38,478 nucleotides of DNA, taken from the IMG/VR virus record IMGVR_UViG_3300037478_000235, positions 1-38,478 of that record. One strand, written 5' to 3'. The translations under genes were made by a program, and so were the position numbers. Position 1 is the stretch's first letter, and each line of letters starts with the position of its first letter. Under the pieces are notes generated by a model, which was not told where the DNA came from, ran no database searches, and saw only the letters and a program-made list of their open reading frames with translations. This DNA comes from a virus (lineage: Duplodnaviria; Caudoviricetes). This document shows, piece after piece, positions 16,664 to 28,285 of the stretch.

Positions 16664-16910
16664 AGCCGTTGCGTTTAAGTGATATACTAATATACGGAAT
16701 TAAGTTGATATTAGTTACAACATTCAAGGAATATTTTAGGTTATTTTAGACTTTTCTGGAATTCCCGTTTTAAGACCTCCAACCCCCAAATGAGCTCAGA
16801 TATTCCCTCCCCTGAGATCGTGGCTTAGAGGGGCTGTAATGAGGTCGTTTTTCGGGGGCAGGCACCAAAATTCCTGGGCGACTGACAATATTTGCGATGA
16901 TAGCCCGAAT

Positions 16911-17231: not shown

Positions 17232-17273
17232 GACTGTATTATTTCTGCTCCTGTACTATGCCTATGCCCCGGC

Positions 17274-17756
17274 TCATTTGAAATTCAGTTCTGAGAATGA
17301 TTTCCAGCCACGTTCCGTGAACTGTGTCGAGTACACTTCGCCTTTCGGCATGATCGGCCTCCAAAATTCATCGCAGAAAAGGCGGTAGTGCCAAACGCCT
17401 AATTTTTTACCCTCATCAGAGTACGGCGGTTCGGTCCACAATAATTTTTTGTTGCTAGCAAATAGCAGATCAATAATTTTGTTCAATACGGATTTGTCTT
17501 TGCCGCCCGGAAAACTAATGCTTAGGTGATAGCAGCGTTCGTACATTGGATTCTTCCACCAGCCTCCGGAATGATATCCAACGTCGCGGGTGTACAGGAT
17601 TACACACGGATACCTGACAAGATGCCACCGGCAGGATTCAAAATAGTCGGTGCGCCGCCTGCCGTCCCAAACATCTTTAATTGCCGCTGCCGTCATTCGT
17701 CTGCACGCGTCTGGAAGTAAGGTGTATTGATCTAGTACCTTCATTTCTTCTTCCAT
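17274..17756 (-). CDS. Hypothetical phage protein
   Basis: Overlaps DUF1064 end; HLSIS motif. Confidence 0.6.
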   Translation of the reverse strand: MEEEMKVLDQYTLLPDACRRMTAAAIKDVWDGRRRTDYFESCRWHLVRYPCVILYTRDVGYHSGGWWKNPMYERCYHLSISFPGGKDKSVLNKIIDLLFASNKKLLWTEPPYSDEGKKLGVWHYRLFCDEFWRPIMPKGEVYSTQFTERGWKSFSELNFK

Positions 17757-18124
17757 TTAGGTGGCCGTGACTTATGTTCAATCAATACCAGTTCGCAGGC
17801 AGGTTCTATTTCGTCTTTCAGGGCCTGAAGTAATTTCCACTTTATCATCCAGTCCTGTAACTTCACGCCTTTATACTCCCGAAATTCTACGGAGCCGTCC
17901 TTCATTATCACTTTGAAATCGCAGTAATAATTGCAGATCAAAATGCCGTTGACTCTGAGTTCTATTTTGTACTGCGGTATCCATTCCAGAATTTCACCAG
18001 CTTTCTTTAACCAATCAAGTTCTTCGGCGTATGCGGCTTCACCTTTTGAATGATACCACCTACCACCGTATTCCTGACGTATGGCCTTGTACTTGTTAGA
18101 TGCTTTCCTGGTTCGATATGACAT
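17741..18124 (-). CDS. DUF1064-like PD-(D/E)xK nuclease-fold protein; first 8 codons supplied by the TnpB cassette
   Basis: NKYKA...YHSKGEA...YYCDF...EYKG...IKWKL signature. Confidence 0.8.
   Translation of the reverse strand: MSYRTRKASNKYKAIRQEYGGRWYHSKGEAAYAEELDWLKKAGEILEWIPQYKIELRVNGILICNYYCDFKVIMKDGSVEFREYKGVKLQDWMIKWKLLQALKDEIEPACELVLIEHKSRPPKWKKK
18100..18124. repeat. Diverged copy (18/25 nt) of 19279-19303; recoded DUF1064 N-terminus
   Basis: ATGCTTTCCTGGTTCGATATGACAT vs ATGCTTTGCGTGTGCGGTAGGTCAT; minus strand encodes MSYRTRKA vs MTYRTRKA. Confidence 0.9.
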
Positions 18125-18142
18125 TACCTGCTGTTTTTGTGG

Positions 18143-18150
18143 TATATTTG
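18143..18150 (+). promoter_or_regulatory. Bacteroidota-type -7 promoter element for tnpB
   Basis: TATATTTG matches TAnnTTTG and ends 5 nt before the ATG at 18156. Confidence 0.6.
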
Positions 18151-18155
18151 AAATA

Positions 18156-19298
18156 ATGCTGCGGACCTATAAATACAGATTGTACCCGACAAGAAATCAG
18201 TCCGAGGCTATCAATTCGCAGTTCGGCCTTTGTTGTTGGCTTTACAACACGGCTCTGGAACACAGGATAACGGCTTACAAAAAACTCAGTAAGTTTGTAC
18301 TGTACACCTGTCAAAATAAGGAGCTTCCTGAAATTAAAGACGCTTTCCCTCAATTCAAACAAGTCCATTCTCAAGTATTGCAGGATGTTTTGAGACGGCT
18401 GGATAAAGCCTTTCAAAATTTCTTCCGTAGAATTAAGACAGGACAAAAGCCCGGATTTCCCCGTTTCAAATCCGGTGACCGGTATACTTCGATCACTTAT
18501 CCTCAGGGTGGGTTCGCCATCAAAGGCAATCGCCTGGAACTTTCTAAAATAGGACGTGTTAGAATCCGCCAGCATCGTGGCATCGTGGATGGCGGCAAGG
18601 TAAAGACCTGTACCATTACTAAGTCCGGTAACCACTGGTACTGCTCTCTGGTAGTGGAGTATCAACTTATCGCCCCTAAGAAAGTAGTCAGTAATGCGGT
18701 TGGTGTTGATCTCGGCCTTAACTCCTTCGCAGTTCTTTCGGATGGCGTCGTGATCGACAATCCGCGCTACTACCGTAAGTCTCAGGATGAACTTAAAGAG
18801 GTTCAATCCAAATATTCTCTTCAAAAGGGCAAGGCAACGAAAAGAAAGTTGTCGGCCTTGCATCGCAAGGTCTCCAATCAACGCAAAGACTTCCTGCATA
18901 AGGAAAGCCGGAGGATGATAGATACTTACGATCTGATTGCACACGAAGACCTTAACATCAAGGGCCTGGCTCAACTGAGTCTTTCTAAAAGCGTTCATGA
19001 TGCGGGATGGGGAATGTTCATAGCAATGCTCACGTACAAAGCGGAAGAAGCTGGTACGCACGTAGTCGCTGTCAATCCCTATCGCACTTCTCAAACCTGT
19101 TCCAATTGTGGGGCAATAGTCAAAAAGACGCTGGCTGACCGTCAGCATGACTGTCCACAGTGTGGGTTGAGTATGGATCGTGATCTGAACGCTGCTCATA
19201 ATATTTTAAAGTTAGGAACTAGCTTAGCGGAACAGACTTGTCTGTACCCTGAAGCCACCTTTGAGGATGGCAGTTCACATGCTTTGCGTGTGCGGTAG
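18156..19298 (+). CDS. tnpB: RNA-guided endonuclease TnpB (IS200/IS605 family)
   Basis: MLRTYKYRLYPT start; GFPRFK; RuvC-I GVDLG, RuvC-II AHEDL, Zn finger CSNC/CPQC, RuvC-III DRDLNAAHNI; all three acidic residues present. Confidence 0.96.
   Translation: MLRTYKYRLYPTRNQSEAINSQFGLCCWLYNTALEHRITAYKKLSKFVLYTCQNKELPEIKDAFPQFKQVHSQVLQDVLRRLDKAFQNFFRRIKTGQKPGFPRFKSGDRYTSITYPQGGFAIKGNRLELSKIGRVRIRQHRGIVDGGKVKTCTITKSGNHWYCSLVVEYQLIAPKKVVSNAVGVDLGLNSFAVLSDGVVIDNPRYYRKSQDELKEVQSKYSLQKGKATKRKLSALHRKVSNQRKDFLHKESRRMIDTYDLIAHEDLNIKGLAQLSLSKSVHDAGWGMFIAMLTYKAEEAGTHVVAVNPYRTSQTCSNCGAIVKKTLADRQHDCPQCGLSMDRDLNAAHNILKLGTSLAEQTCLYPEATFEDGSSHALRVR
19150..19298 (+). ncRNA. Predicted omega/reRNA: scaffold ends at 19278, guide about 19279-19298; 5' end approximate
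   Basis: GAAGCCACCTTTGAGGATGGCAGTTCAC hairpin and end motif typical of IS605-group right ends; TnpB guides derive from the DNA flanking the right end. Confidence 0.65.
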
Positions 19299-19598
19299 GT
19301 CATAACATTGGCTCTGTAAAATTGAGTTAACGAATGTGGGGTACGCGTCCCGGCTCAGGCTATAGCGTGTTACTTGCTTTTCGACTTTGAATCCTACGCT
19401 CTCGATTAAGATCATGTACCTGTAGACTGTACGGCGATCAACGTGGAGAACCTCAGATAGTCTGGTAATGGTGTATTGTCCTTTGAACATCAGGTCAATC
19501 ATCCTGAATATTCTTTCCAGTTTGGGGGCATTGTACACTCCTTCCGGCTCAACTGACTTAACTGGCCCAGTAAGCCACATATAGTTGCTGCTCGTCAT
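19275..19598 (-). CDS. HTH DNA-binding protein (HTH_11-like)
   Basis: YTITRLSEVLHVDRRTVYRYM helix-turn-helix. Confidence 0.75.
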   Translation of the reverse strand: MTSSNYMWLTGPVKSVEPEGVYNAPKLERIFRMIDLMFKGQYTITRLSEVLHVDRRTVYRYMILIESVGFKVEKQVTRYSLSRDAYPTFVNSILQSQCYDLPHTQSM

Positions 19599-20149
19599 AA
19601 GTCCCTAAGTTTTAACCATTCATTTTCTTCAACCCAGTTCTCATTAGGCTTGCCAGTATGCGGATCAAAACATTCCCGTATCCATTCGTTGTGTAATTGC
19701 AGTTGCTTGACTATACTCGCAGGGGTCGGCCGGACCTTTGTAGCTAATGGCCTTACCTGGCCTTCGCGTTCTATTTGCCTCTTGTCCATTGGCGGTACAG
19801 GACGGCAGGCTGTCTCTAACTGCTTTAGGTACTCAGCTATCAACTTGTCTGTTTCTGCTTTTTCTTCGGGTGTGGAGGGCGCTGGTAGGGGGCTATCCGA
19901 ATTTGGTATCTCCTGCCAGTTCTGCACCACCTTCACCGGCTCAGGTTTTAGATACGTTAGTTTGTTGTGGACGTATTTGCGGAACTCCTGAACGCTATAG
20001 AACTTATACTTTTCAGGATCAGACAGGACCTCGCCGTAAATCAACTGGGCTGCCTGACGCACCGACTTTCCCCTGTGGATCATGGCCATACTGTCAAACC
20101 ACAGGTCGTCGGATACCAGGTCATTGTAAAATTCTTCAAAAGGTTTCAT
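19595..20149 (-). CDS. Hypothetical protein, possibly replication-related
   Basis: 184 aa, coupled to the HTH gene; follows a long non-coding region. Confidence 0.55.
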   Translation of the reverse strand: MKPFEEFYNDLVSDDLWFDSMAMIHRGKSVRQAAQLIYGEVLSDPEKYKFYSVQEFRKYVHNKLTYLKPEPVKVVQNWQEIPNSDSPLPAPSTPEEKAETDKLIAEYLKQLETACRPVPPMDKRQIEREGQVRPLATKVRPTPASIVKQLQLHNEWIRECFDPHTGKPNENWVEENEWLKLRDL

Positions 20150-20571
20150 AGCACTTAAACTGTTACTTTAAATAAATCCCGTTGGACATACCGACTTTTC
20201 TCCCTGGATTTGTTACCTTTGCCACTAGTCGTAGCTTTGAGGTATTTCAATCCATTGAACAAAGGGGGCTTTCTCTAAAACAGATTGTCCCCTTTCTTGT
20301 TTAATCAGTGTCCGTCTCTCCCCTGTCAATTCCTTCAATTAAGAAGGCATGTTTTAACCCATCTAAGAGCGAGTTTTATCAAAGCCTTTCAGCCAATCCA
20401 TTGACTGGGTTTGTCAGTCGTCGACTACCCAGATTAACTCCTCCACTGTTAAACTCTTGCTTTTCAATCAGTCTCTGTTATCTGATCAGGCTGAGCAAGT
20501 TTTGCAGAACCTTTTAATCTATATTTCTAATCCTGGCACCAGCAGGCTAACAAACCACACAAGGAAGGTTT

Positions 20572-20957: not shown

Positions 20958-21061
20958 CTTCTCGGCGTTAGGTAAACCCTCTCAGACTTAGGGTACACAG
21001 GGGAACAGGAACTGAGAAATAAAGAATATCAGCGTCCAGCAGAGGTAGATAATTAGGCGTT

Positions 21062-21478
21062 TCATACCGGTATGTTAAATCGTTCATTCCAAACTTTTTT
21101 TATCTCCGTCAGCGTTTTAATGTCAACCATTGAGGCCAGAACAGGCGGAATTCTTACCTTGTGTCTGGGATTGTTTACAAGCTGCTTCTCGGGGTAGTCA
21201 CAGAGAATCCATTTCTTCGTGGCTTGGCGCTTCAGGTAGTTATGGCGTATGTCCTCGATTGCGGTTGAGAGGTCCGGCAGATTAAGGCACGATGCCAACA
21301 CGTCAACCGGCATAGTTCGCGGGATTGTCTCATCGGCTAAGTACTCTCTGACCTTCTCTCGCTTATGCGGCAGGTCTTTGTGCCCGATCTTACAGTTAGC
21401 TGCAATCATCTTCTCCAGGGCCTCAATTGGCTCAATGTCAAGGATAAATGCGAGTTGTTTGTAACTTATTTCCGTCAT
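21062..21478 (-). CDS. Hypothetical protein
   Basis: Coupled ORF in early operon. Confidence 0.55.
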   Translation of the reverse strand: MTEISYKQLAFILDIEPIEALEKMIAANCKIGHKDLPHKREKVREYLADETIPRTMPVDVLASCLNLPDLSTAIEDIRHNYLKRQATKKWILCDYPEKQLVNNPRHKVRIPPVLASMVDIKTLTEIKKVWNERFNIPV

Positions 21479-21795: not shown

Positions 21796-22163
21796 AACCC
21801 ATTATTTTTAAGTACCACATAACCACCTATGATTATCCCCGCTACAAAGCATCGCACCAACAGAAACTTGTAAGGATCGAACCGGATAATGAACTTCTCC
21901 CACGCCTTACCATTTGTTGTTGACACGTAGTCCCACCTTTTTTTTCTTAACTTGTTAAGCGCAATGTCAAACCATACAAAAGGCGCAACCGCTAAACATA
22001 AATTCGACGGCGGGATAGTAAGTACCCATAGGGTTTCAGTAGAGCAGAGGCCGATTAAGATAACGCGGAGCCATAACGGTAAATCTTTCTTGTTCCATTT
22101 GATAAGGAAGAAGTCAAGAAGCAATTCAAATATGAACGGTATCAGTGGTATCATTTCTTTCAT
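21792..22163 (-). CDS. Membrane protein
   Basis: Several hydrophobic segments. Confidence 0.55.
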   Translation of the reverse strand: MKEMIPLIPFIFELLLDFFLIKWNKKDLPLWLRVILIGLCSTETLWVLTIPPSNLCLAVAPFVWFDIALNKLRKKRWDYVSTTNGKAWEKFIIRFDPYKFLLVRCFVAGIIIGGYVVLKNNGL

Positions 22164-26437: not shown

Positions 26438-26450
26438 TAAGTCTACTTAT
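26435..26450. promoter_or_regulatory. Palindromic operator copy 2
   Basis: ATATAAGTCTACTTAT overlaps the leftward -7 element and the repressor ATG. Confidence 0.75.
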
Positions 26451-26859
26451 GGAAAACAAGGGGGGAGCGAAAATATTTAAGAAAAAAGCTGCTGAACGAC
26501 TAAAAGCCCTTATGAGGCAGCATAATATTGAGCAACCAGAATTGGCAAAAGCCACCAACTTGAGTCAGGCCACGATCAGCCACATATTGAATGCGGTAAA
26601 CCGATCTTACAAATCAGCGTTCTTATTGGGGATGTACTTTAAAGTCAATCCTCTGTGGTTAGCCGGAATGGTTGATGATGGGCAAAAGGATTTGAGCGCC
26701 TACGAACAGAAATCAAAGGGTGAACTTGAGAGCGAGGTAGTTATCCTGAGCACCCATAAAGAGTCCCTGGACTCGTACATTAAATTATTGAATCAAAAGA
26801 TCAGGACCAGGGATGATGAAATAAACAGGCTAGGTGGAACAGTTAGTCAGCTCGAGTAA
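26449..26859 (+). CDS. CI-like XRE-family repressor with C-terminal coiled coil
   Basis: RLKALM...QPELAKATNLSQATISHIL...VNPLWL; no S24 peptidase domain. Confidence 0.85.
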   Translation: MENKGGAKIFKKKAAERLKALMRQHNIEQPELAKATNLSQATISHILNAVNRSYKSAFLLGMYFKVNPLWLAGMVDDGQKDLSAYEQKSKGELESEVVILSTHKESLDSYIKLLNQKIRTRDDEINRLGGTVSQLE

Positions 26860-27060
26860 TATCAGCAATGATCCGACTGTGTGTACCTTGCTTTCGATAT
26901 GTAGGCGCTGACAGTTTGTTAACACCCGCCCCGCTCCTTTAAGAACAGCCTTATTAACCTCCACAGATTCGTGCAGGGATTCACACAATAGATTTTGATT
27001 GATGCCGTGCGCGGACAAAACGTTATTCAGCGCAATGGCGGACTGGGCCAACTGTGACAT
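26830..27060 (-). CDS. Hypothetical protein convergent with the repressor
   Basis: 76 aa, AT-rich upstream region. Confidence 0.45.
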   Translation of the reverse strand: MSQLAQSAIALNNVLSAHGINQNLLCESLHESVEVNKAVLKGAGRVLTNCQRLHIESKVHTVGSLLILLELTNCST

Positions 27061-27121
27061 AATTGAGAGGGTTATGTTTGGGATAAATAAGATAAGGAAC
27101 TATATCGTAAAATCCAAAAAA

Positions 27122-28285
27122 TCACCCCATTAACCGTTTTAGTTCTTCATTCACTTCCTCAGTAGTCCATCCGATATAGGCTGAGGTTTGTTCTATAGAC
27201 GAATGCCCGTAGTACTTTGAGAGCTTGAATATATCGCCCCCTCGTTCCATCCACATACGGCCAAAGGTTCGCCGGGCTACGTGGGTGGTAATCATTTTAT
27301 GTTTAGGAAGTAAGTCCACCAGTCTTTCATTACCGCGGTACCTGACTTTTTCAATGGTATCTGTTAGCTTTGCGGCCCTGGCTATCTGCTTAATCCTTTC
27401 GTTGCAATCTTGTTGATAGAGTTTAGGGGCCGTGAAGCCCCAGCGCCTGGCTATGGCAGAAGCTTTAGAGGAAAGCAATATATTCTGATCCAGCCGGGTT
27501 TTAATGACAGAGAAGTCAAGGTATACGTCTTTACCTCTTTTTATGAAGTGGTGGGATCGGAGTTGTTGAACATCGGAAAACCGTAAACCAGTGTAGCATC
27601 GGAAAATGCACTCATCTAAGTACACTTGGTGTTCGGCAAGGGGCTTAAACTGTTCCAGTAGGTTCAATTCTTTTTCAGTCAGCCACACAGGTTTGGGGGT
27701 GATATATTTAAACCGGAACTGCACAAAGTCAGGATGCACTTTTACCCCTTGTGATTGGGCAATGCGCATAACTAATCGTATCTTCCGTACATGGTCATGG
27801 ATGGTGTTATTCTCTTTGCCATCGTCTATGAGTTCATTGATGTAATCGTTGAGACTGTCAAGTGAGAAGTCGAGCGCCAGCGGATCACCGAACTTGACTA
27901 ACCTATCAGATACGGGTTTGAACTTACGCGTATAATTGTTTCGAAGGACTTTAAGGTTGCGGTCCCGGTAGTTAAGCAGTAATTGGGATAGGGTAGGGGA
28001 GTCAGCCGGTCTTTGAACCACCCGGAACCTACGGACATTGGCAGAGGTAACGGGCAGTCCCTGGTACTGAAGTTTGAGAAGGATGTCCTGGACTTCGGCT
28101 TTGCGTTTAGTAAGTATGGCGTTTAAGTCTTTGTATCTTGGCATCTGTGACGAAATAGTCTGTGTAGCCTGATCCCAACAGGCAGGAAAGACTTTCACCC
28201 CGGTTCGGATTGGTATGTTCTTGTACATGAAATACAGGCGCGACAGCCCGTATTTATCCTTAGGCTTGAGGAAGGCTTTGAGCAT
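27122..28285 (-). CDS. int: Tyrosine integrase with arm-binding N-domain
   Basis: YTGLRFSD, HVARRT, YGHS, catalytic Tyr in SAYIG; N-terminal TGVKV...WDQ arm domain. Confidence 0.95.
   Translation of the reverse strand: MLKAFLKPKDKYGLSRLYFMYKNIPIRTGVKVFPACWDQATQTISSQMPRYKDLNAILTKRKAEVQDILLKLQYQGLPVTSANVRRFRVVQRPADSPTLSQLLLNYRDRNLKVLRNNYTRKFKPVSDRLVKFGDPLALDFSLDSLNDYINELIDDGKENNTIHDHVRKIRLVMRIAQSQGVKVHPDFVQFRFKYITPKPVWLTEKELNLLEQFKPLAEHQVYLDECIFRCYTGLRFSDVQQLRSHHFIKRGKDVYLDFSVIKTRLDQNILLSSKASAIARRWGFTAPKLYQQDCNERIKQIARAAKLTDTIEKVRYRGNERLVDLLPKHKMITTHVARRTFGRMWMERGGDIFKLSKYYGHSSIEQTSAYIGWTTEEVNEELKRLMG

Follow-up and report, generated by a model that had tools for sequence, protein, structure and literature searches.

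Why would a phage carry the gene for an RNA-guided nuclease eight codons inside one of its own genes, and why is the start of that interrupted gene present twice, once on each side of the insert? The first-pass annotation of this locus had proposed a TnpB cassette that targets the gene in which it sits, carries a recoded rescue copy of that gene, and spreads by homing. The stretch of DNA analyzed here (hereafter the window) is a whole virus record of 38,478 bp with an estimated completeness of 77%, and the run containing the phage, X1, is a sediment metagenome. Since the window encodes an integrase, ERF, YqaJ, a terminase, and an endolysin, its source is a temperate tailed phage. The Arm-DNA-bind_5 domain of the integrase, together with TAnnTTTG at 18143–18150 (+), which we take to be the Bacteroidota promoter motif and which is found 25 times in the window, suggests a host among the Bacteroidota; a scan for sigma-70 promoters and terminators gave results at chance level only. 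Mid-contig, a repressor-like HTH gene and integrase at 26449–28285 separate the early region from a second gene cluster, and many ORFs between 32900 and 38300 look, by eye, like glycosyltransferases or methyltransferases.

The interrupted gene encodes a 127-aa DUF1064 protein on the minus strand (17741–18124; Pfam PF06356, E = 7e-9; PHROG 190, “Holliday junction resolvase,” E = 9e-15). Its best fold match is TnsA, with a middling Z of 8.6 (rmsd 3.6, 103 aligned), and the product is likely a Holliday-junction resolvase with a PD-(D/E)XK-type fold. The cassette occupies 18100–19278 (1,179 nt) and contains an intact tnpB, with neither tnpA nor a left-end hairpin. From left to right, the tetranucleotide TTAG (18096–18099, +), which on the minus strand falls within codons S9–N10 of DUF1064, is followed by a replacement gene start reading MSYRTRKA (18100–18124, −), a 31-nt spacer formed by the A-rich minus-strand leader of DUF1064 (18125–18155), the 380-aa tnpB (18156–19298, +), and an IS605-type right end, GAAGCC-hairpin-GTTCAC (19251–19278, +), whose last bases, TTCAC, lie at 19274–19278. 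Directly beyond is the displaced original start (19279–19303), which reads MTYRTRKA on the minus strand and forms the predicted guide on the plus strand. An upstream HTH gene (107 aa; 19275–19598, −) overlaps this segment, and its product ends in HTQSM, vs. HTQSI in the corresponding protein of a relative (P0228). Because the right end supplies a stop codon (TGA) for the HTH gene and the replacement start is in frame, both overlapping genes survive the insertion; the next methionine of DUF1064 after its start is residue 74.

These letters and positions agree with the first-pass annotation, as do two further observations on the paired starts: they differ at 7 of 25 nt (positions 8, 10, 11, 14, 17, 20, and 22), and their similarity begins at the first base past TTAG/TCAC, with 18 of 25 bases matching from there on and 3 of 12 in the stretch leading up to it. 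The 7/8 peptide match between the two starts is unique among the 76,908 24-nt windows of the genome, where the runner-up reaches 5/8, and the probability that seven random substitutions leave 7 or more of the 8 residues unchanged is 5e-4. The peptide is kept in the DUF1064 frame and lost in the other overlapping frame (VISNQESI in the replacement vs. DLPHTQSI in the original), so the constraint lies on the DUF1064 frame. The 25-nt repeat consists of two diverged copies and does not represent a target duplication; the insertion lies directly 3′ of the tetranucleotide without duplication, giving an empty junction of 18099 to 19279. An assembly error does not account for the cassette junction: a single X1 contig of 1,304 nt (depth 8.3) covers 18005–19308 without differing letters. 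This spanning contig is non-independent support, since the source sample may be X1 itself.

TnpB contains HTH, OrfB_IS605, and zinc-ribbon domains (Pfam) and is ISDra2-like by alignment to PDB 8bf8 (E = 5e-57) and by a model in which the last ~27 aa, translated through the right end, are of low confidence. Alignment to ISDra2 shows the RuvC catalytic triad present (D185, E264, and D343), and the zinc-finger cysteines are intact. The right end at 19278 is likewise borne out by multi-copy relatives, which stop exactly at GAAGCC-hairpin-GT(T)CAC (e.g., the pairs L044/L081 and L052/L059), and it has the form by which IS605 ends are recognized, a hairpin ending in TCAC/TCAA. The segment 19251–19278 is predicted to be the 3′ part of the omegaRNA scaffold. 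Bases 19186–19190 are complementary to the right end at 5 of 5 positions, a full complement found in just 4 of 106 related loci and without covariation; the RNA fold of 19140–19303 is not better than that of shuffles (z = −0.94), and an Rfam scan of 17500–20000 returned no matches at E ≤ 1. A left-end hairpin was not found in or around the spacer, the DNA fold of 18090–18160 reaching −0.5 kcal/mol, whereas four genuine left ends range from −6.6 to −13.8, and tnpA was not found in the one record searched (a contig ~77% complete; the control search gave a signal in 6 of 14 genomes). IS1341 elements lack tnpA by definition.

A guide starting at 19279 is retained as a prediction, whereas the 25-nt length originally given to it is not, ~16 nt being probable (PMC10097598). 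Such a guide would be identical to the cassette's own replacement copy at positions 1–7 and would mismatch it at three positions (8, 10, and 11) within the TAM-proximal 12; in ISDra2, double mismatches within 12 bp abolish cleavage (PMC10097598). We assume that the replacement site resists cleavage, and this stays an assumption because guide positions 1–7 match the cassette's own copy. Among other TTAG-preceded sites in the genome, none has fewer than 6 mismatches in 16 to the guide. As a rule, IS605-type elements insert directly 3′ of their own TAM (10.1101/2023.03.14.532601), so the TAM of the cassette would be TTAG. Insertion at TTAG was otherwise seen only in relatives 33–34% identical; the closest multi-copy relatives among the fetched loci (44–49% identical), which have VHSQVLQ and SxTYPQ segments similar to those of the window TnpB, are inserted after TTTAT or TTTAA. 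Closer TnpB relatives exist at 69–81% identity in a protein search, and the relatives' loci from DNA scans reach 63% (partial) and are mostly 30–53% identical, among the matches listed. An antisense ORF of 367 aa (18096–19199, −) runs over tnpB and ends at a TAA inside the putative TAM; it could be a codon by-product, and an expressed antisense ORF has been described in a cyanophage tnpB (10.64898/2026.02.14.705889).

Removing the cassette should restore an empty allele, as the first-pass annotation had predicted, and such alleles were recovered both as DNA and as protein. Among the four runs compared, one contig, from X1, joins 18099 to 19279, skipping exactly 1,179 nt. It has a depth of 12 and 29 nt on its short side; joints with a short side of this length often derive from other organisms, and we read this one as probably representing relatives. 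Three X1 contigs covering the DUF1064 body stop at 18095–18097 and differ from the window at 10/108, 6/106, and 7/91 positions. Their depths (3.7 + 3.4 + 5.0 = 12.1) appear to account for that of the junction, which suggests at least three cassette-free strains in X1. Excision from the window's own phage is an unlikely source of the junction: the window contig runs through 18099 without a break, and the junction is deeper than that contig, its depth matching that of the three diverged contigs combined. At the protein level, P0224 (from a JGI 21.4-kb contig) and P0225 (from Logan; 94% identical to the window DUF1064) begin MTYRTRKASNKY and read directly into the DUF1064 body, and the HTQSI ending of P0228 requires TTAG beside the original start; all three are known as proteins only. 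The DUF1064 bodies of closer relatives are 90–94% identical. A search for the empty-allele pattern gave one match in viral_contigs and none in metagenome_contigs, and one relative, L020, carries GTTAG plus the target at 25/25 identity, so that TTAG abuts both the empty-allele junction and the L020 target. The filled allele occurs in one background only among the four runs, plus a 151-nt X2 contig identical to tnpB.

What the guide would recognize becomes clearer from L020, a mosaic relative that is collinear with the window and shares 22 blocks with it across 16 kb of window sequence. Several of the shared blocks are 25–35 bp long, 100% identical, and placed at gene junctions, and two of them correspond to the opening 30 and the closing 34 bases of DUF1064. 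The second of these, a downstream linker made of the last DUF1064 codons and the start of the next gene (17740–17773, −), is identical at 34/34 positions in L020, which has no DUF1064 body at this site; the slot between the two ends holds NinG (PF05766) and two unknown genes (L020:1329–2313), and the DUF1064 head is a 16-codon relic mini-ORF between other genes. Contig joints from X1 and X2 also end at shared blocks (16852/17245, 19304/20536, and 21824). Judging from this one fully read relative and the contig joints, the predicted guide target is a conserved module linker, and its position at a module boundary would be why the original start is so conserved; the first-pass annotation had overlooked this linker, as it had the survival of the upstream HTH gene. 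The block pattern makes this phage family a clear case of modules shuffled at their boundary sequences, and it fits the old proposal that mosaicism in phages arises through short sequences of this kind (PMC3029335). Junction blocks matching L020 at 87–100% lie at window positions 16784–16852, 17245–17279, 17740–17773, and 19279–19304, with further ones at 20536–20568, 20964–21069, and 21802–21825. P0122 and P0228 are both on 1,918-bp JGI contigs, possibly the same one; if so, an empty-type HTH ending adjoins a DUF1064 protein starting MAVYRQVKSKN, with the same tail linker. A search with 19 nt of the guide returned three contigs, of which L101 and L103, lacking TTAG and lying in unrelated contexts, were discounted as chance matches. 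None of five candidates from a scan with the 138-aa neighbor was confirmed, and a DUF1064 profile had four matches in 401 genomes of the order of L221's genome, both linkers being absent from the two strong ones.

The first-pass annotation also called for a survey of tnpB loci whose guides resemble their own flank, and the layout was found at two more, L086 and L195, with TnpBs ~45–49% identical to that of the window and displaced copies that each begin at the base after TTCAC. The first survey compared 8-residue peptides at 177 loci, 129 of which passed filters, and in 400 control pairs. At 7/8 residues it returned five loci vs. 4/400 controls; by eye, the window and L086 are real, and L004, L143, and L175 were dropped as likenesses between left-end and right-end hairpins. 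The loose 6/8 test did not discriminate (36/129 loci vs. 80/400 controls). The second survey, anchored on the right end, covered 257 loci (145 with the motif) and 300 controls; the window, L195, and L199 scored above all 300 controls and L086 did not. In a metagenome contig, L086:230–1907 is a TnpB cassette with a foreign 60-codon 3′ end of a small gene (122/183 identical), adjoining an ArdC-domain gene. The cassette at L195:1–1776 carries a ~24-codon replacement 3′ end of a DegV gene and is located in a Candidatus Nealsonbacteria genome bin, apparently outside a phage. L199:1064–2740 was ambiguous (AT-rich, ~24 similar nt, with the whole L23 gene between) and was not counted; its tnpB separates rplW from rplB within an operon of ribosomal-protein genes, and the bases past its right end resemble the upstream rplD/rplW junction.

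The replacement start has diverged more than its surroundings, with 7/25 differences vs. 84/936 in the bodies of seven contigs (P = 0.005) and vs. 23/305 in three junction contigs (P = 0.002). Gene-body divergence is ~8–9%, and the original start is unchanged in L020. The notion of a recoded rescue copy stands only in part: the replacement start is in frame, and capture of a foreign allele is a likelier origin for it than re-spelling in place. The divergence of the L086 copy, with its many residue changes, likewise favors capture of foreign alleles. In our reading, the foreign start survived because it escapes the guide. A donor phage with the replacement spelling was not found, the DNA search giving one match (L020, with the original spelling) and the protein search none among 103 proteins.

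We lean toward a history, probable on the record of the sequence, in which recombination with a diverged allele rescued an IS605-type insertion, which lost its left end and now persists by cutting, and copying itself into, empty relatives. An IS605-type element would have inserted at TTAG and removed the DUF1064 start; recombination with a diverged allele would have replaced the left end by a new start, and beside the TAM only a start mismatching the guide would have survived. TnpB loaded with right-end RNA would then cleave TTAG together with the original start in a cassette-free phage resident in the same cell, and carrier-templated repair, probably via the phage's YqaJ and ERF, would copy the cassette and the replacement start together, so that converts keep a working, resistant DUF1064 gene. 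With its left end lost, the element could move only by such cut-and-repair copying; plasmid-to-plasmid spread that is TnpB-dependent and TnpA-independent has been reported (PMC13565253, section 6.1).

The same features might instead record a one-off repair, in which an IS605-type insertion recombined a single time with a diverged allele and did not spread meaningfully, TnpB doing no more than selecting against a matching start. This accounts for everything seen in the sequence, including the exact TAM boundary and the foreign-looking start; the cassette is in one genomic background only, and in so mosaic a phage family such recombination would be frequent. A dead-end insert would, however, be expected to decay, and this cassette, despite losing its left end, has kept an intact ORF, triad, and right end; moreover, perfect targets are present in the same run, X1, and the layout recurs in unrelated lineages. 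We consider a one-off repair doubtful, if worth keeping in view. With comparable reserve, we entertain as a tentative extension of the homing history a home-and-rescue drive on the module linker itself, which would cut every linker-keeping relative and swap NinG for DUF1064 plus TnpB, with repair through the two flanking linkers, whichever resolvase module the rival holds. If that were true, the guide RNA would be a directed force in phage mosaicism.

It is distinctly unlikely, in our estimation, that TnpB serves first as an anti-competitor weapon, destroying co-infecting or resident relatives at the shared linker with copying secondary. The linker is 100% kept in L020 despite differing flanking genes, where local homing would have almost no left homology, and phage–phage interference by a homing endonuclease has been reported (PMC11620839; PMC13565253). 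Against this, the 90–94% identical DUF1064 bodies of closer relatives would support conversion, and nothing suggests retargeting of the guide, which is just the flank of the insertion; a weapon is in any case compatible with homing and not exclusive of it. Chance similarity or an assembly artifact is very improbable, for although just 25 nt are involved and a 6/8 match is common in the control pairs, the 7/8 match is unique in the genome and placed exactly at both junctions, a single contig spans the whole cassette, and, to the extent that the empty alleles found as DNA and protein are real, both explanations are already refuted. The favored homing history is unusually testable at this locus because the carrier and empty alleles share one sediment run and their sites differ by seven bases.

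Among known systems, the homologous nuclease of IS200/IS605 elements (ISDra2, PDB 8bf8/8h1j; ISGst; PMC10097598, 10.1101/2023.03.14.532601) is the natural starting point. As in the homing of these TnpBs, the cassette is predicted to use a right-flank guide, a target made of the TAM plus the empty site, and insertion 3′ of the TAM. Unlike them, it lacks tnpA and a left-end hairpin and brings along a substitute for part of the gene it interrupts; self-protection is assumed to lie in the mismatches of a near-copy beside the TAM rather than in the left end, and the predicted target is another phage rather than the sister chromosome. If this is true, TnpB can abandon transposition and live on as a homing nuclease fixed at one site, at no cost from sitting in a gene. 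IStrons offer a partial parallel, being TnpB elements made harmless to the interrupted gene (PMC10690162). They splice from RNA, whereas the cassette restores the gene in DNA and has no Rfam match, so that no group I intron was found, and only 31 nt separate the replacement start from tnpB.

Free-standing phage homing endonucleases (T4 Seg/Mob; ICP1 HEG islands; PMC13565253, PMC10055350) are also intronless homing systems, and they share with the cassette the distinction of self from rival by substitutions in neighboring genes, the co-conversion of flanks, and a site at a phage exchange boundary. The cassette differs in being RNA-guided, transposon-derived, and located inside its target gene, part of which is duplicated, and it ties boundary-sequence mosaicism (PMC3029335) to a nuclease predicted to break DNA there.

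Together with TnpB transposon homing, the nearest precedents are the fungal mitochondrial mORFs of Allomyces atp6 and Glomus atp6, atp9, cox2, and nad3 (PMC3630166), in which a gene-inserted endonuclease likewise brings a foreign version of the gene end that it displaced, and the native end on the far side is nearer to relatives than the carried copy. Those are protein-guided LAGLIDADG or GIY-YIG enzymes that carry C-termini in mitochondria, whereas here a phage TnpB, on the opposite strand, carries an eight-codon N-terminus and the displaced piece is itself the guide. The homing-type table in PMC13565253 has no class that combines TnpB with a replacement gene piece, and we found no description in the literature of a TnpB carrying a replacement piece of its target gene, an earlier mention being possible. 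If the homing history is true, the home-and-rescue logic of engineered drives has arisen naturally with a guide RNA. In its anatomy the cassette is well supported as an RNA-guided variant, new as such, of the known strategy that pairs an endonuclease with a foreign gene end.
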